64,000 nt of DNA from a virus: positions 1 through 64,000 of the IMG/VR virus record IMGVR_UViG_3300037499_000265. One strand, written 5' to 3'. Shown in pieces: positions 4,558-57,263 of the stretch; within the stretch, counting starts at the first letter, position 1; the number at the start of each line of letters is the position of its first letter. A model generated the notes under the pieces. That model worked only from the letters and a program-made list of their open reading frames with translations, was not told the DNA's origin and did not search any database. The position numbers and the translations under genes are program-made.

Positions 4558-4949
4558 TCGAACTGTTCCTGCTTCTGATCGCTGGCCACTACCTGGCCGA
4601 CTTCGGTCTCCAGCCGGACTTCGTCGCCAAGATGAAGTCTCGGGTGTTCTTCGAGGCGATGGGGTTCCACTGCCTGACCGCGCACGCCATGATCCATGGC
4701 CTGGTCGCGGCGGCTGTCGCCGGCGTACTCGGCTACGGCTGGTTGATGCCGTTCGTCGTGGTCGCGATCACGCACTGGCTGATCGACTTCGGCAAGGCAT
4801 GGGACGGCTGGCCTGATGCCTGGCGGATTACCCAGGGCGCCAAGCAGTCGGGCAAGCCGGACGCTCGCGGGCTGTACGGCATCAACGCCGACCAGGCGTT
4901 GCACATCTTCGTGCTGATCATTGTCGCGCTGGCGGTGGTCGCGTCATGA
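4554..4949 (+). CDS. DUF3307 family membrane protein
   Basis: GHYLADFGLQ...HAMIH...THWLIDFGK...DQALH; TTG start overlapping MazG stop. Confidence 0.8.
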   Translation: MIELFLLLIAGHYLADFGLQPDFVAKMKSRVFFEAMGFHCLTAHAMIHGLVAAAVAGVLGYGWLMPFVVVAITHWLIDFGKAWDGWPDAWRITQGAKQSGKPDARGLYGINADQALHIFVLIIVALAVVAS

Positions 4950-28610: not shown

Positions 28611-28857
28611 CGATCGCATCGTGGTCGCCGGAACGAGGACCGTCGAGCAGGCCCGAGAACTTGTAGTGGCCGCCGGCGCAGGCTGTACGTGTGAGCCCAC
28701 CGTGTTCACAGTGCATTCCTGTACGCCGAGACGAGGGTACGTCCGCTGGTTCCGCGACATCCCGGCCAACTGGCCGGACCCGTGTGGGCACGAGCGTCAT
28801 CTCATCGACGCGAGACGAGGGGAACGGGGCGCGTTCGTCGCCGTGGTGTTCGGATGA
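28573..28857 (+). CDS. hypothetical protein
   Basis: GGAGG RBS; ATGA overlap with methyltransferase. Confidence 0.55.
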   Translation: MPRRPPRVLSIDDDRIVVAGTRTVEQARELVVAAGAGCTCEPTVFTVHSCTPRRGYVRWFRDIPANWPDPCGHERHLIDARRGERGAFVAVVFG

Positions 28858-30842
28858 TCCATGTCATCGTCACCTCGTCGCGGACTTGGCGAAACCCCAC
28901 GTTGGTGTACCGCGCGCTGCACGCCGCCAGGCGGGCGTCTAAGGATGGGAAGGTCAAGGTCACCCATGGCGACTGCCCGACCGGTGGCGATCACTACGCG
29001 AGCATCTGGGCCGACGCCTGCGTGAGCGCGATCAACGATCCACACCCGGCCGACTGGGACACTCACGGCAAGCGAGCCGGTCCCATCCGGAATGAGGAGA
29101 TGGTGGATCTCGGGCCTCAGTTCGCTCTGGCGTTCGTCAACCCGTGTGCCAAGCCGAACTGCCCGGACGGCGGCGATAGCTCGGACGAGCACGACTCGCA
29201 CGGCGCCGCGCACACGATCGGGCTGTGCGAGTTCGAGAAGATCCCGATCGAGGTCTTCCGGGAGAAGTCCGATGGCAAGTACTGGTCTCCGACGTCTCCG
29301 ACCGACGAGCAGGTGGTGCCGGGAAAAGACGAGTCGGCCACTGACCAGGTGGTCGACTTGTTCGCCGGTCCTGGTGGTTGGGACGTGGGAGCGCGCTGGC
29401 TCGGTCTGGATCCACTCGGCGTCGAGAACGACACAGCGGCCTGCAAGACCCGAGAGGCAGCCGGACTGCGAACGCTGCAGTCCGATATTCGCACCGTCGA
29501 GCCCATGCCTGCGACGGGCCTGATCGCCAGTCCGCCCTGCCAGTCTTTCTCGGCGGCCGGAAAGGGCTCTGGCCGGAAGAACCTCGACCAGGTGTTCATC
29601 CTGGCCCGCCTGCTCGTGCTCGGCGAGGACTGGCGGAAGTTGACCGAGGGCCTGGACGACGAGCGGACCGCACTCGTGCTCGAGCCGCTGCACTGGGCCT
29701 ACGAGATGTTCAAGGCCGACACACCGTATCGTTGGCTCGCGCTCGAGCAGGTACCCCCGGTGCTACCGGTCTGGGAATTCTATGCCGAGATCCTACGCAG
29801 CTGGGGGTACTCGGTGGCCACCGCACACTTGCAGGCGGAGATGTACGGCGTCCCACAGACCCGGAAGCGAGCCATTCTGATCGCCTCGCTAGATCACGAA
29901 GTGTCGATGCCTACGCCGACGCATTCGAAGTACTACCCTCGCGATCCACAACGTGTGGACGAAGGTGTGGACAAGTGGGTCTCGATGGCTGAAGCACTCG
30001 GATGGGGGATGAACGGGCGCCCATCCACGACTTTGATGACGGGAAACAATGGCGGCGGTCCGGATCCGATGAGCGGGGGATCTGGCTCTAGAGCCGTCCA
30101 TGCCCGAGAGCAGGTCGAGGGCCGATGGATAGATCGCGACACCGAAGTGGTCGGGTTTCCGAGATTGGCGGACGGCAATGACGTTGTCGAACTCGACGGA
30201 GTCCAGTACCGAAGCCGAGACTTACGACCGGTGGATCTACCGGCTCAGCATGTCACTGAGAAGGTTCGCTCATGGCGTCGTTGGCCAGTCGCCATGCGTC
30301 AGAGCGCGCAGACCAGGGCCACCGTTCGCGACGAGGACCAGCCTGCCCCGACCATCACCGCCGCTCACGATCGGAACGAGCGGGTCTGGCTGGTGAACAA
30401 CACCTCTGAGAAGGCCGGAGTTCGTGAGAGTGATGAACCTGCTCCGACGATGTACTTCGGCGAACGCCTGAACAAGGCCGTTTGGACCCATGAACGCCCT
30501 GCCACGACCATCACCACGACGAGGCGCTCGTCTGAGGGCGGTCTGGTCGGCTACTCGTTGGACGAGTTGTGGCCGGACCGCAGACCTGCGACCACGGTGA
30601 ACGGCGACCCACGCATCTCCAAGCCCGGCCACCACGACGAGAACACCTCCGGGTCGCAGCAGGCCGGGGCGGTCCGTGTCACCATCCAAGAAGCAGCGAT
30701 CTTGCAGTCGTTCCCGCAGGGATATCCCTGGCAGGGATCGAAGACTAGACAATACTCGCAAATTGGAAACGCGATTCCGTGCAGGCTCGCCTATCACATC
30801 CTGAAGGCAGTGACACGTGACGGAAACCCTGATACGATTTGA
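28854..30842 (+). CDS. SLOG (DUF2493-like) domain fused to DNA cytosine-C5 methyltransferase
   Basis: N-term VIVTSSR...VTHGDCPTGGD...AGPIRN...GAAHTI; C-term DLFAGPGG, SPPCQ, LEQV, PQTRKR, QEAAILQSFP...QIGNA. Confidence 0.85.
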   Translation: MIHVIVTSSRTWRNPTLVYRALHAARRASKDGKVKVTHGDCPTGGDHYASIWADACVSAINDPHPADWDTHGKRAGPIRNEEMVDLGPQFALAFVNPCAKPNCPDGGDSSDEHDSHGAAHTIGLCEFEKIPIEVFREKSDGKYWSPTSPTDEQVVPGKDESATDQVVDLFAGPGGWDVGARWLGLDPLGVENDTAACKTREAAGLRTLQSDIRTVEPMPATGLIASPPCQSFSAAGKGSGRKNLDQVFILARLLVLGEDWRKLTEGLDDERTALVLEPLHWAYEMFKADTPYRWLALEQVPPVLPVWEFYAEILRSWGYSVATAHLQAEMYGVPQTRKRAILIASLDHEVSMPTPTHSKYYPRDPQRVDEGVDKWVSMAEALGWGMNGRPSTTLMTGNNGGGPDPMSGGSGSRAVHAREQVEGRWIDRDTEVVGFPRLADGNDVVELDGVQYRSRDLRPVDLPAQHVTEKVRSWRRWPVAMRQSAQTRATVRDEDQPAPTITAAHDRNERVWLVNNTSEKAGVRESDEPAPTMYFGERLNKAVWTHERPATTITTTRRSSEGGLVGYSLDELWPDRRPATTVNGDPRISKPGHHDENTSGSQQAGAVRVTIQEAAILQSFPQGYPWQGSKTRQYSQIGNAIPCRLAYHILKAVTRDGNPDTI

Positions 30843-44572: not shown

Positions 44573-45066
44573 TGCGAGTCGTCACAGGCCGCGAGTACTC
44601 CGGTCCGGCAGGCCGCGCTACCGAGATCCTTCGTCAAGGCGAGCCTGACCGGCCGGATTGGGTCGCGACGGTGTCGTGCTGGTTCCTCGAGTGCCCCGGC
44701 CAGTCACCGGCATGGTCCCACTACGTCATGTGGGTCATCCACCTGCGGGATCTCGACGATGTTCCGCCGGCGCATATCGAGATCCCAGGGGCCACTCACG
44801 AGCTGGTTGTGGCCGCGCTGGATCCTGACTACAACCCGAAGGCGCTGAGGCTGTCCCCCTGGCGATTCCTGCGCCCGCTGAACGTCCAGGAGCAGGTCCA
44901 GCTACCGAACGACGAAACGGCCCGGAAGCTGGCCAGTATCGCCGTTCAGGCCGTTGTGAACGGAACCCTTCCGGCAGAGCCGGCTCTGTCCGGCGCGGTC
45001 GAGCCGTGGCGAACGTCGCTGATCAGGACGTCGGCCCATCTACGCGGCGAAGAACACGCATCGTGA
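44572..45066 (+). CDS. conserved actinophage hypothetical protein
   Basis: QSPAWSHY...IHLRD...ATHE...ALDP. Confidence 0.7.
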   Translation: MRVVTGREYSGPAGRATEILRQGEPDRPDWVATVSCWFLECPGQSPAWSHYVMWVIHLRDLDDVPPAHIEIPGATHELVVAALDPDYNPKALRLSPWRFLRPLNVQEQVQLPNDETARKLASIAVQAVVNGTLPAEPALSGAVEPWRTSLIRTSAHLRGEEHAS

Positions 45067-45317
45067 AGATCTCCTACCAGGTCGGACTCGCCTTCGACGA
45101 AGCTGACGATGTCGAGGCTCGTACGGGATACGAGGAGCTGGCCAACCTGTCGGACTACACCGCCGAGAAACACGAGCTGTTCGCTTACCTGCTGATGATG
45201 GCCGTGCGGCTCGAGTGGCGGATGGCAGACCGGTCCAGGGAGTACGAACTGGACCGTCAGCGACGCGAGGAACGCCGACGGGAACGAGCTGAGAAAAAGG
45301 CTGCCGAAAGTACTTGA
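45063..45317 (+). CDS. hypothetical protein
   Basis: GTGA overlap. Confidence 0.55.
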   Translation: MKISYQVGLAFDEADDVEARTGYEELANLSDYTAEKHELFAYLLMMAVRLEWRMADRSREYELDRQRREERRRERAEKKAAEST

Positions 45318-45342
45318 CACGATCGTCAGACCCCGATAGTCT
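45314..45342 (+). promoter_or_regulatory. sigma70/HrdB-type promoter of the ncRNA array
   Basis: TTGACA-N17-TAGTCT. Confidence 0.7.
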
Positions 45343-45501
45343 CGTAGGAGTAGGTCGGGTGGGGGTCAAGCCGCTTCGGTCCGGATGACTACAACTCTCC
45401 GGTCGTCGTGGTCCCCGCCCATCCGACGAAGGAGCCGACGAGCTGAAACACACTTGCCAGACCGCCAGCGAGGCGAGAAGGTGGGTAGACAACTCCACAG
45501 C

Positions 45502-45568
45502 GTGGCACAGGAGGTTCCTCCATCATCAAGCTCCGTCAGGGGCTTTCCGCAGATTTACCTCCCGCCAC
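45502..45568 (+). repeat. structured repeat unit 1
   Basis: GTGGCACAGGAGGTTCCTCCA-N33-TACCTCCCGCCAC. Confidence 0.9.
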
Positions 45569-45698
45569 GTCTTCAACAACTTCATAGATGTGCTGCGCCG
45601 GGTAGGCACGGCTGGACGGTTGGCCGGAAAGCTTCAGCGACCTAGTCGCTCGAGGTGAGTAGGTGGGACCCGGTGCAGTGCTTGACAACTGAACAGCG

Positions 45699-45763
45699 GT
45701 GGCACAGGAGGTTCCTCCATCAACGCTCCTCTCGAGGAGCTCGAACAGACTACCTCCCGCCAC
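45699..45763 (+). repeat. structured repeat unit 2
   Basis: GTGGCACAGGAGGTTCCTCCA-N31-TACCTCCCGCCAC. Confidence 0.9.
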
Positions 45764-45781
45764 CTCTGACAACTTCATAAT

Positions 45782-45837
45782 GTGGCATAGGGGGTTCCTC
45801 CACAAACCACCATGTAGGTATCCATACCTCCCGCCAC
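45782..45837 (+). repeat. structured repeat unit 3
   Basis: GTGGCATAGGGGGTTCCTCCA-N22-TACCTCCCGCCAC. Confidence 0.9.
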
Positions 45838-45854
45838 ACTGACAACTTCATAAC

Positions 45855-45910
45855 GTGGCACAGGGAGTTCCTCCACATCCGCATTTGGTTGCATATATAC
45901 TCCCCGCCAC
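45855..45910 (+). repeat. structured repeat unit 4
   Basis: GTGGCACAGGGAGTTCCTCCA-N22-TACTCCCCGCCAC. Confidence 0.9.
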
Positions 45911-45920
45911 GCCCGACGAT

Positions 45921-45957
45921 GGGCGCGGTTCTGTGCGACAGACCGCGCCCGTTTTTT
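45921..45957 (+). terminator. intrinsic terminator between RNA array and ORF
   Basis: GGGCGCGGT(T)CTGT-GCG-ACAGACCGCGCCC then GTTTTTT. Confidence 0.85.
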
Positions 45958-45995: not shown

Positions 45996-47876
45996 ATGCG
46001 ATCCACTATCCGACTGTTCAAGGCGCTGCCGGTGTCCGGCACCGCGGGCGGTCTGCCGACAGATCCCGCGTTGGATCGGCTCACCCTGCGCCGTGGGTTC
46101 GTGTTCGACTCTAGTCTCGTCGGCGAGTACCGCAGTGTGGACCGTCTGATCTCCATGGTTGACGAGGTGTACGGCCGGGGCTCGGTCGAGCTGAACACCG
46201 CGTTCCACAAGTCCTTCGCCAAGGTCCGCGACGCCTCGATCCAGCAGCTGGTCTTCGAGCAGATCGTCCACTACTTCACCACCTACGGCGCAGAGCACTT
46301 CGGCGTGTACGACGAGAGTTCAGTCTTCGTTCCCGGTGAGCACCTCGACGCCCCGGAACTGTCCGAAGGCATTCGCGTCGTCGTCATCCGCGGGCTGACC
46401 AAGGCCGAACTCAAGACCGAGCTGCTGACGCTCGTCTCGTCCGGGATCGCCCTGGCCGAGGACACCATCGCCGACGTGCTCGACGTGGCCGCCTTCGTCG
46501 GCCTGGACGAGGCCGATCTGTCCGCCATCACCAACCGAGAGGTCCGGGCCGCGCTGTACGACCATCTCGGCATCATGCCGTCCGACCCGCAGGAGTTCCT
46601 GCGGTTCCTGGTGTACCGGGCGACCGGACAGACCCAGGTGGTCCAGAACGACTCCCTGCTCAACACTCTGCGCTCCCGGGACAACCTCGACCTGGTCCGG
46701 TACTTCCGGACGTATGAGGCTCAGACCGGCCTGCGCCGGCTCGGTGAGATCTTCCTACGGTACCGGCTGGTCTTCCTCGCCATGAAGACCAACACGGTCC
46801 TGCGCACCTACATCAACCGGATCCGTCGGGAGGCCAAGCGGTCCCACAAGCCGATGCCCGAAGACGTCCTGAACTCGGTCACGATGCACCTCAAGCGCGG
46901 CGATCTGGACTCCGGCGCGGTGTCCCAGGCGCTGGCGACCGCCAGTGTGTTCCGCAAGGCCCGGCTGGCCTACGCGCTGCGGTACCGGATGTCCGGAGCC
47001 GACGGGATCGTCTATCGGGTGCGCAACGGGCGCGCGTACGCCACCGACTTCAGCTTCCCGCTCGATATCGACGTCGAGACTGTTTTCGGCGAGGTCATCT
47101 CCTCGATCGCTGGCGACATCACGCCGAAGGTAGACGGGAAGAAGATCTTCATCCCGGCCGGACTGGCCTATGGCCTACCCTCGACCGAGAAGCAGTTCAT
47201 CGGGCACCTGCCGGCGGGGACGTCGGTGACGGTGCCGGACGGGCTAGTCGTCGGCGTGCACTGGGAAGACCAGGGCGATCACCGCATCAACCTCGACCTG
47301 TCGCTGTCCAACATCGCTGAGAAGATCGGATGGGACGGCTACTACCGGAGCAGCGGGGACGACGGAATCTACTTCTCCGGCGACCTCACCTACGCTCCGC
47401 CGCCGAATGGTGCCACCGAGGTGTTCCGCATCGGCGCCAGTGCGTACGGAACGTGGCTGCTGAACCTGAACTACTTCAACTACAACGAGGACATCGACGT
47501 CCCGTTCCGGATCCTGGCCGGACACGCCTCAGCCGTGGAGAAGAACCACGTCGTCGACCCGAACGCCCTCGTCGCGAACGCTCACGCGAGGATGGACGTG
47601 CACCAGCGGACACTCGGGATCGTCGTGTCGGGCTTCACCGAGCGACAGTTCTTCTTCGCCGGCGCCGACATCGGAGGTGGGATCACGTCCCGGCACACCC
47701 AGCGTGCCGACGTGGCGATGAAGTACTTCGAGACCTACTACGTCAACGCGATCCCACTGAACGACATCCTGGTCTCCGCCGGCGCCGAGCTGGTCGTTGA
47801 CGCTGCTGACTCGGACCTGGATCTGTCGCCGGAGGCCGTGGACAAGAACACGTTCCTCGAGCTGCTGACGACGTGA
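45996..47876 (+). CDS. 626-aa protein: long alpha-helical (ROT/TROVE-like) region plus C-terminal TerD-like domain
   Basis: AGAAGGAGG RBS; NTAFHKSF...EQIVHYFTTYG; GVHW...INLDLS...IGW...FSGDLTYAPPPNGATE; family assignment from memory. Confidence 0.7.
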   Translation: MRSTIRLFKALPVSGTAGGLPTDPALDRLTLRRGFVFDSSLVGEYRSVDRLISMVDEVYGRGSVELNTAFHKSFAKVRDASIQQLVFEQIVHYFTTYGAEHFGVYDESSVFVPGEHLDAPELSEGIRVVVIRGLTKAELKTELLTLVSSGIALAEDTIADVLDVAAFVGLDEADLSAITNREVRAALYDHLGIMPSDPQEFLRFLVYRATGQTQVVQNDSLLNTLRSRDNLDLVRYFRTYEAQTGLRRLGEIFLRYRLVFLAMKTNTVLRTYINRIRREAKRSHKPMPEDVLNSVTMHLKRGDLDSGAVSQALATASVFRKARLAYALRYRMSGADGIVYRVRNGRAYATDFSFPLDIDVETVFGEVISSIAGDITPKVDGKKIFIPAGLAYGLPSTEKQFIGHLPAGTSVTVPDGLVVGVHWEDQGDHRINLDLSLSNIAEKIGWDGYYRSSGDDGIYFSGDLTYAPPPNGATEVFRIGASAYGTWLLNLNYFNYNEDIDVPFRILAGHASAVEKNHVVDPNALVANAHARMDVHQRTLGIVVSGFTERQFFFAGADIGGGITSRHTQRADVAMKYFETYYVNAIPLNDILVSAGAELVVDAADSDLDLSPEAVDKNTFLELLTT

Positions 47877-55895: not shown

Positions 55896-57263
55896 CTATG
55901 TTACTTGCAAAACGAGGATCCAGGCATCCTCACCCAAAGAGTTCGTGCCGGGCGTGGTGTAGTTCGCCCCTACCGTCTCCGGCGTCGTCGAGCCGTCCAC
56001 CGGGTCGATCCATCGGGCCGTATAGCTTCCGACGAGTTCGGTGTCGTCGACGGTGATGGTCGTCGAGACCGGGAAGTAGATGACCGCCAAGTCGCCGGCC
56101 GCGTTGACCGCGCCGGTGACATAGTCGTCCTGGGAGTCGGAGGCGTTGTACTCCCCGCCACCGCCGCCAGATCCGCTCACGTAGTCGCCCTGGGTCCCGC
56201 GGCCGGCGGTGAGTAGGGAATCGTCGGTGTCGGGGACCAGCAGATGCCAGCCGGACAACGCGGCGAAGGTGTCCCAGACGGTCGGCTGGTCAGAGTTGGA
56301 GAAGATCTCCGACGTCAGGTTGGTCAATGCACTGGACGCCCACGCCCACGTTCCCTCGGAACCGTAGATGCTGCCTCGCGCGCCCGACGAGAGAGCCCAC
56401 CACACCAAGTCCCGCATGACCTTGCGGTCGGGAGCGCTGTTCTGGTCGAAGTGACCGTCGCCCCAGACCACCAACAGCGGGGACGCCTCGCCGTAGGCGT
56501 AGTTGATGCCGCGATAGATGACGTTATAGGAGTAGACGAAGTTGAAGTCCGCGTTGTCGTTCCCAGTGTCCTGGAGGCCGTCGTTCTCTAGGTCCCGGCG
56601 AGAAGTGGTCTCCGGATAGTTCTGCACACCGAACAGGTGGGTGTCGCCCTCGGCACGGATGGCCGTCAGCACCGCCGTCAGCCCGGTGTTGAACGTGTCG
56701 AAGTAGTCGCCGCCCACCATCCACACCAGATTCGACCGGTCCTTGTAGCGGGCGGCCAGTGAGGTTCCGTAGTCGGTGAAGTCTCCGGTGGTGAAGCCGG
56801 ACAAGACTCCGATATCAAGGTCGGTGGAATAGGCGACGTTGAAGAACACGGTGATGCCTGCGGCCTCGCACAGATCGAACAGGTAGTCCGACCGCTCCCA
56901 GAACTCGCCATTGAACGCTGCCGGGTCGCCACCGGTGAACGGCGACACGCCGTCCCAGGTGTCCCCGTTGTCGAACGCGCCGCCGTTCTGCTGGTTGCCC
57001 AGCGGCTCGGTGTACAGCACGTTGACACCGAGGGACTCGAGACCGCTGACCGCGCCTTCGAGATCGGACTCCCACGTTCCGCCCCAGCGGCCGGCGTTCA
57101 TCAGCAGGCCCCACAGCACATAGCCTCGGACGAGAATCGGGTTGTTGTGCTGGTCGACAAAGTGCTGCTCGGTTCCGGACCCACTGATCAATGTGACGAA
57201 TGACGAGTCTAGAACTGTGCGGACTGACCGGATGATCTCGATGTGCAGTTCGTCAGCCATCAT
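55896..57263 (-). CDS. DUF4038 (apiosidase-like) glycoside hydrolase with C-terminal collagen-binding-type beta domain, in tail block
   Basis: FVDQHNNP...FNGEFWERSD...YKDRSNLVWMVGGD; AVIYFP...YTARWIDP...DAWILVL. Confidence 0.7.
   Translation of the reverse strand: MMADELHIEIIRSVRTVLDSSFVTLISGSGTEQHFVDQHNNPILVRGYVLWGLLMNAGRWGGTWESDLEGAVSGLESLGVNVLYTEPLGNQQNGGAFDNGDTWDGVSPFTGGDPAAFNGEFWERSDYLFDLCEAAGITVFFNVAYSTDLDIGVLSGFTTGDFTDYGTSLAARYKDRSNLVWMVGGDYFDTFNTGLTAVLTAIRAEGDTHLFGVQNYPETTSRRDLENDGLQDTGNDNADFNFVYSYNVIYRGINYAYGEASPLLVVWGDGHFDQNSAPDRKVMRDLVWWALSSGARGSIYGSEGTWAWASSALTNLTSEIFSNSDQPTVWDTFAALSGWHLLVPDTDDSLLTAGRGTQGDYVSGSGGGGGEYNASDSQDDYVTGAVNAAGDLAVIYFPVSTTITVDDTELVGSYTARWIDPVDGSTTPETVGANYTTPGTNSLGEDAWILVLQVT

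Follow-up and report, generated by a model that had tools for sequence, protein, structure and literature searches.

What is encoded in a stretch of ~680 nt of phage DNA that contains four repeated, foldable units and no credible gene? The stretch lies between an open reading frame (ORF) at 45006-45317 and an ORF at 45996-47876 in the window analysed here, which is the first 64 kb (64,000 nt) of a viral record that is complete at 127,505 bp and has 62% G+C. The replication genes of this phage share ~34% identity with their actinobacteriophage counterparts. A first-pass annotation, made from the letters alone, had read the four units as an array of small structured RNAs with a common protein-binding stem and different payloads, acting with the protein encoded directly downstream.

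The four copies were found exactly where they had been placed, all on the + strand (Table 1). Every unit folds as an outer helix, an AYA bulge opposite a single C, and a 6-bp inner helix, closed by a loop that starts UCCUCCA and ends U. The GTGGC/GCCAC pairing that had been proposed forms the outer helix both in the fold of each unit and in the RNAalifold consensus. Run on the four units alone, RNAalifold recovers both helices together with a sixth outer pair that covaries (C-G, G-C, U-A). Compensatory changes occur at three pairs among the four units, including the A-U/G-C swap of unit 4; the covariation originally noticed in the inner helix, namely this double swap and the G.U pair of unit 3, is recovered by the same program. 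Folding likewise yields the hairpins described within the inserts of units 1 and 2. The folding z-scores of units 1-4 are -4.1, -3.7, -1.4, and -3.1, respectively. Units 1 and 2 were absent from the training set of the covariance model R1, and their scores of 39.1 bits each correspond to an E-value of 2e-8. The 21-nt 5' motif of the units occurs four times in the window against 0.02 expected, and throughout the whole 127,505-bp genome both this motif and R1 hits are confined to the array's four units.

Table 1. Features of the array and of the gene that follows it, in window coordinates.
Feature	Coordinates	Strand	Description	Score
Possible promoter	45314..45342	+	TTGACA, 17 nt, TAGTCT; read from sequence	
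Leader hairpin	45354..45427	+	0/200 shuffles equally stable	MFE -40.6 kcal/mol, z -2.96
Unit 1	45501..45569	+	Handle and 41-nt loop with its own 7-bp hairpin	R1 39.1 bits
Non-canonical structured element	45590..45681	+	14-bp stem, branched interior	z -4.0
Unit 2	45698..45764	+	Handle and 39-nt loop with 6-bp hairpin	R1 39.1 bits
Unit 3	45781..45838	+	Handle and 30-nt loop, G.U in inner helix	R1 49.7 bits
Unit 4	45854..45911	+	Handle and 30-nt loop, two inner pairs swapped compensatorily	R1 51.0 bits
Intrinsic terminator	45918..45957	+	16-pair G+C-rich hairpin followed by a U run, between array and gene	
Partner protein gene	45996..47876	+	626 aa; ribosome-binding site GAAGGAGG 5 nt upstream	

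Three structures that the first-pass annotation had not recorded accompany the units: a leader hairpin, a branched element between units 1 and 2, and an intrinsic terminator. The leader hairpin is no member of the handle-unit family and lies where the array transcript probably begins. Its position just after the putative promoter means that it could act as a 5' stabiliser or be a further non-canonical RNA. The promoter itself is no more than possible; it fits the actinobacterial TANNNT type of -10 box but falls below the threshold of a sigma-70 scan. The element between units 1 and 2 is without the AYA bulge and UCCU and is not matched by R1, and the linker box upstream of it is the same as that before the units. 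The terminator is strong and unusual in the family, being missing between array and gene in most relatives, where the last unit ends a median of 28 nt before the start codon.

Units 1 and 2 with their flanks look like a tandem duplication of ~196 bp (repeat families D2, D3, D6, and D7). Families D6 and D7 suggest that the duplicated block comprises the branched element plus one unit, repeated in tandem with a period of ~196 nt. The idea that the linker box ACAACTTCATA serves the individual units as a promoter was dropped, as consistent -10/-35 spacing is absent; the box is more simply explained as a duplicated linker. A local GGAGG/CCUCC hairpin within each unit was also rejected, being possible only in this G+C-rich phage, without conservation in A+T-rich relatives, and not the MFE fold. 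The loop of the units starts with UCCUCCA here instead of UCCUAUUAAA because of the G+C content. The 3' half-motif of unit 4, TACTCCCCGCCAC, recurs once in identical form at 56149-56161 of the window, 10 kb downstream; no 5' partner was found for it and it is probably there by chance.

Direct searches with the array returned little. An Rfam search of the window region gave chance miRNA rows only, blastn matched the array to none of 50,697 phage records, and a metagenome scan found no close relative. No match to the 21-nt motif in its exact form exists in IMG/VR, conservation being limited to the degenerate handle. This handle becomes visible through the protein gene. Homologues of the 626-aa protein at 35–55% identity were fetched from 80 viral contigs of ~25% to 60% G+C, and nearly all 80 contigs carry one to eight handle units just upstream, with arrays reaching 7–8 units. 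The closest relatives of the protein, namely P0002 (80% identity) and proteins of Rhodococcus and Mycolicibacterium, lie outside the loci compared. In the handle consensus, the outer helix ends in GGC/GCC and is followed by a 5' AYA bulge that faces one C, an inner helix RRNNGU/ACNNYY, and a single-stranded UCCU. The inserts carried by this handle range from ~12 to 160 nt, with at least 80 nt in ~7% of 268 distinct units, and include tRNA mimics. The earlier description of a common stem with differing payloads thus extends to the family as a whole. The tetranucleotide UUGG occurs in ~18% of the short family inserts, a seven-fold excess over shuffles, and is present in unit 4.

Whether pairing or sequence is conserved in the handle can be judged from units located by sequence anchors only, that is a 5' GCANA-N4-GUUCCU and the first downstream AC-N4-CGY, which avoids circularity. 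The four free positions of the inner stem are paired in 95% of cells, compared with 65% for shuffled partners (maximum 69% in 1000 shuffles), and are occupied by 47 different tetramers. Pairing rather than sequence is thus conserved, as expected of a structured RNA in the original reading. The outer helix of the same units is paired in 82% of cells versus 57% with shuffled partners. Alignment A3, which contains 44 sequences, has 94.7% of its cells paired, and both partners vary in 9 of the 12 pairs. Its covariation score is 0.66, against 0.23 for shuffled sequences (0 of 500 reach 0.66) and ≤0.20 with slid partners. The helices contain 139 G.U and 50 A.C combinations, and the 5' motif is found 222 times on the gene's strand and three times on the opposite strand. 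It follows from this excess of G.U over A.C and from the strand bias that the functional form is + strand RNA.

The units are tied to a single gene. Covariance model R1 finds them in 79 of the 80 viral loci, with all 214 hits on the gene's strand and most of them ≤500 nt upstream; the one viral locus that has no hit has just 65 nt of upstream sequence. A further 77 hits, again all on the gene's strand, are spread over 56 bacterial and archaeal loci, most of which carry units, including those of Chryseobacterium, Tenacibaculum, Planctomycetes, Ktedonobacter, and archaeal MAGs. Homologous arrays beside homologous genes, the co-occurrence that the first-pass annotation had proposed looking for, are therefore the rule in viruses and are found in most of the cellular loci. 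The linkage is also exclusive, as 18 of 18 R1 hits in five whole phage genomes (~1.02 Mb) fall within ~2 kb of the partner gene. None of the other neighbouring genes of the window is common to the relatives, hence the conserved module consists of the RNA array and this one gene.

The arrangement is not always an upstream array. Some units lie downstream of the gene, including one at 4827-4882 of locus L173 (Synechococcus phage S-CRM01) and others in L082, L046, and L034, and L006 carries a unit 1.5 kb from the gene, among tRNA genes. S-CRM01 is a cultured phage in which the partner gene, g174, sits within a tRNA cluster with three units upstream and one downstream. Its units lie at 132346-132572 and 134427-134482 of the phage record, and it infects Synechococcus sp. 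LC16. A 48-aa hypothetical ORF on the opposite strand, g173c (L173 2791-2937), overlaps two units of this phage and is probably a spurious call. The cultured cyanophage S-CBWM1 encodes the protein as gp22 with one unit. The pair carries no annotation in either S-CRM01 or S-CBWM1. In phage Phass-1 the protein homologue is present, with no R1 hit within 1.5 kb. Listeria phage CKA15 has been reported to encode an 'Rsr-like' protein and abundant RNAs (PMC12282133). Both the protein and the RNAs were examined as candidate members of the family and rejected, as tblastn with two family members finds no Listeria phage.

The partner protein has 626 residues, and an AlphaFold model divides it into a helical N-domain (~1-380) and a C-domain of TerD fold (~383-560). 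The mean pLDDT is 74.6 over the full length and 79.8 over the N-domain, with residues 66-124 at low confidence. The protein matches no Pfam or PHROG family, and a protein-profile sequence search of solved structures gave no hit. Across 22 family members Pfam gives no hit at E ≤ 1, thus neither TROVE (PF05731) nor TerD (PF02342). A profile search of 1.84 billion proteins stays within one closed family, which comprises 1,298 clusters at 50% identity. Neither Pfam nor Foldseek reveals a catalytic domain in the protein, be it a nuclease, a helicase, or another. Many Arg, Lys, and His residues of the helical domain are invariant across the family, and DLDLS- and SGD-type motifs are conserved in the C-domain. 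Foldseek identifies the C-domain as a TerD β-sandwich (2kxt, E 3.4e-5; 3ibz, 5.8e-5; 2qng, 1.7e-4; probability 1.00) and not as a vWA domain; overall, matches to TerD structures have E-values of 1.5e-5 to 1.7e-4 and TM-scores of 0.54–0.57 relative to the target. Four family members of 332–378 aa (P0250, P0275, P0323, and P0345) consist of the N-domain only and may be gene fragments or split genes, with the helical and TerD parts encoded separately.

The N-domain is harder to place. Foldseek with this domain finds nothing at E ≤ 0.001. Aligned with Ro60 (1yvp_A), whose fold is a HEAT-repeat ring, it gives a Z-score of 5.9, a value that is low for helical repeats, with an rmsd of 6.1 over 233 residues (model 28-390, chain 5-376). 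Alignment with 2nvo covers 159 residues at a Z-score of 5.0, a level that is common among helical repeats. Ro60 is the sole solved chain aligned over more than 200 residues of the domain. Comparison of A2 with the TROVE alignment A4 by hhalign gives a probability of 0.2%, A4 being of low diversity, and single-sequence hhalign is also negative. An Atlas search using features and structure returns only the protein's own family. The N-domain is therefore not called TROVE here, given the low Z-score, the negative hhalign comparisons, and the recovery of its own family only in the Atlas; such an assignment is likewise unsupported by Pfam and by the exhaustive profile search.

In Flavobacteria the RNA ligase RtcB is encoded directly upstream of the pair; in Chryseobacterium a WYL regulator comes first, followed by RtcB, three units, and the partner gene. 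RtcB is adjacent in 31 of 80 genomic loci, which belong mostly to the Chryseobacterium clade and include the independent lineages L089, L106, and L161; loci of Tenacibaculum, a Pacearchaeota MAG, and a gammaproteobacterial MAG are among the 31. Among the 80 viral loci RtcB is adjacent in two (L026 and L030), and tRNA genes lie within 3 kb in 19, of which 10 are embedded in tRNA clusters. In the phage studied here, RtcB is encoded at 114-116 kb and a tRNA cluster lies at 89.7-90.9 kb, both 44-70 kb from the array.

Several observations were made along the way on other genes. The phage RtcB gene (G000:C1:114218-116260, outside the window) is one open frame of 705 aa with a split Pfam match, profile positions 1-50 at 114218-114367 and 49-426 at 115292-116260, and the insertion of ~300 residues is probably an intein. 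At G000:C1:103468-103542, also outside the window and away from the tRNA cluster, ARAGORN predicts a tRNA-like gene whose anticodon has four bases (gaac) and whose amino acid is unassigned. Within the window, a 686-aa ORF at 28782-30842 encodes a C-5 cytosine DNA methyltransferase preceded by an N-terminal YspA/SLOG-type domain. In a Bythopirellula MAG, a canonical Ro60 gene (TROVE and vWA_Ro60 domains; L112 9681-11330) is found on the opposite strand 1.8 kb from a gene of the helical plus TerD type, so that both systems stand side by side in one genome.

Because the array and gene recur as a pair in many phages, bacteria, and archaea, an undescribed RNA-protein particle is probable. We consider it fairly probable, by analogy with Ro60 and its Y RNAs, that the array and the 626-aa protein form a particle of this kind with a different handle and a different protein. 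From the sequences compared here we infer that the units are transcribed, processed, bound by the protein, and functional. The array would give rise to four, perhaps five, small non-coding RNAs of a widespread and uncatalogued family, which would bind the protein encoded directly downstream; it is the gene linkage that suggests both the processing into separate RNAs and the binding. The handle may be the docking site for the helical N-domain. The distal module would be the variable part, a short loop or simple hairpin here and in some relatives a YrlA-like permuted tRNA mimic. If the analogy with Ro60 and Y RNAs holds, the handle would keep the RNA on the protein and the module would recruit or occlude another factor, candidates for which are enzymes of RNA processing or repair and host nucleases directed at tRNA-like RNA. 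Such a particle might serve the phage in RNA quality control, repair, or counter-defence during infection. Transcription is predicted to begin at ~45314, and most transcripts would end at the terminator, leaving the RNA in excess over the protein mRNA. Translation of the gene would then need terminator read-through or another promoter.

Other explanations fit parts of these data. The units could be cis-acting elements of an mRNA leader through which the protein or another factor autoregulates the downstream gene. Their invariable position on the gene's strand and the median distance of 28 nt from the last unit to the start codon in most relatives, which places the units in the 5' UTR, are what such a leader would look like. 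It is nonetheless unlikely, as a strong terminator parts the array from the gene in this window, units are found downstream of the gene in four loci and 1.5 kb from it in another, and an operator needs no two to eight copies with different modules, some of them tRNA mimics. Regulation in cis and the production of separate RNAs are in any case compatible rather than exclusive. The strand bias, together with the excess of G.U over A.C, also argues against repeats that act at the level of DNA, whether as protein-binding sites, recombination sites, or remnants of duplication without an RNA function. Although the apparent tandem duplication of ~196 bp around units 1 and 2 is in keeping with such repeats, pairing is kept while sequence changes across genomes of ~25% to 62% G+C, and the tRNA-like modules of relatives match an RNA covariance model (YrlA), which leaves this reading with a next to negligible probability.

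Two further readings take the units as RNAs with other roles. The first-pass annotation had listed guides, decoys, and scaffolds as possible payloads. A guide RNA, whose insert pairs with a nucleic-acid target and whose constant stem scaffolds an RNA-guided effector, would account for a constant scaffold with a variable part beside a large uncharacterised protein. However, the longest exact matches of the inserts to the phage's own genome are 9–12 nt, as long as those of shuffled controls, many inserts have internal structure or resemble tRNA, their length varies from ~12 to 160 nt, and the protein shows none of the nuclease, helicase, or other catalytic domains sought. Guides are therefore highly improbable, and a scaffold or decoy payload fits the evidence better. 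The locus follows the layout of ToxIN, with a possible promoter ahead of the tandem RNA units and a terminator between them and the protein gene, and a type III toxin-antitoxin-like locus, in which antitoxin RNA repeats precede a toxin gene as an abortive-infection or addiction module, would share it. The likeness ends with the layout. The units are unlike one another in stem and insert rather than near-identical direct repeats, and are built from long-range helices. The protein is large, and its folds, helical and TerD, are not those of an endoribonuclease. Most relatives in the handle family lack the terminator, and the pair is found within tRNA clusters and RtcB operons, in phages as well as in cells. 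A toxin-antitoxin locus is accordingly scarcely credible. The Ro60-like particle remains the preferred reading.

The handle RNA is absent from Rfam 15, the protein from Pfam and PHROGs, and the literature searched contains no description of either. To our knowledge, no bacterial or phage particle except Ro60 with its Y RNAs uses a modular small RNA to adapt a protein to other RNA enzymes. Another such family, if real, would broaden the picture by ~1,300 protein clusters at 50% identity, spread over phages of ~25–62% G+C, Flavobacteria, Planctomycetes, Chloroflexi, and archaeal MAGs. Its RNA handle would be distinct, and the TerD fold would gain a role connected with RNA. Intergenic stretches without annotation and small ORFs wrongly called within phage tRNA clusters would also find an explanation. 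Taken further, and more tentatively, the pair may be a second, independent Ro-like RNP system of phages, bacteria, and archaea, in which a helical plus TerD protein unrelated to TROVE reads a distinct handle. The exchangeable modules would then be adaptors or decoys that direct or block host enzymes of RNA repair, RNA decay, and tRNA-cleaving defence, and the handle was perhaps derived from Y RNA and co-evolved with a new partner. This extended proposal is plausible but falls somewhat short of probable. Direct testing is possible because the pair is present in the cultured phages S-CRM01 and S-CBWM1 and in many Chryseobacterium strains.

Among known systems, the resemblance to CRISPR arrays is limited to the alternation of constant and variable sequence. 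The variable part lies inside each repeat, the halves of the repeat pair with one another, inserts are often structured, and there are no cas genes or cas-like neighbours, so the earlier judgement that this is not a CRISPR layout stands. Known TerD proteins are ~190 aa, stand alone, and are encoded in ter operons, and we know of none that pairs with RNA genes. The C-domain shares their fold (2kxt, 3ibz); the difference is that none of the 22 family members gives a Pfam TerD match.

The closest comparison is with Ro60 (Rsr; TROVE and vWA domains) and the Y RNAs YrlA and YrlB, which are found in bacteria and phages (Chen et al. 2014, PMC4201824). Thermus phage phiLo, for example, encodes Ro60 with Yrl1 and Yrl2, and study of the role of Ro60 in phages is only beginning (PMC12135203). 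In both systems several small RNA genes lie directly upstream of one gene for an RNA-binding-type protein, and each RNA combines a terminal two-helix stem with a bulge and a variable module. Both occur in actinobacteriophages, and both proteins join a helical N-domain to a C-terminal domain with a fold that is known to bind metal ions. The linkage to RtcB in cells parallels the Salmonella operon rsr-yrlBA-rtcBA. The comparison also draws on the tRNA genes near 19 of the 80 viral loci, the Ro60 gene close to a family gene in Bythopirellula, the invariant Arg, Lys, and His residues of the helical domain, and the presence of RtcB in this phage; the concentration of RtcB adjacency in one clade and the 44-70 kb that part the array of this phage from its RtcB and tRNA cluster weigh against it.

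The likeness extends to the modules themselves. Long-insert units of the relatives L007 and L009-L014 match the Rfam YrlA model (RF02553) at 35–49.5 bits, below its gathering score of 69 bits, which no unit of the family reaches, and share the permuted order of the tRNA mimic, T-arm, hairpin, D-arm. Some members of the handle family thus bear the same permuted tRNA mimic as sub-threshold YrlA matches. The window's units have no YrlA match at E ≤ 10 and no tRNA-like module (T-arm, D-arm); all four are of the short class and resemble YrlB rather than YrlA. Further differences concern the handle and the protein. The Ro60-binding site is defined by GNCGAA(N)G and CGAA in the terminal stem of Y RNA (PMC4201824, PMC12135203), whereas the handle here is GGC-AYA ... 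GU-UCCU, with no CGAA at the equivalent place in its consensus GGC-AYA-RRNNGU-UCCU. The partner protein is not detectably TROVE, there is no TROVE match in the whole phage genome, and the C-domain has a TerD fold in place of vWA. Finally, the arrays of this family reach 7–8 units, which also sets them apart from Ro60 and its Y RNAs.
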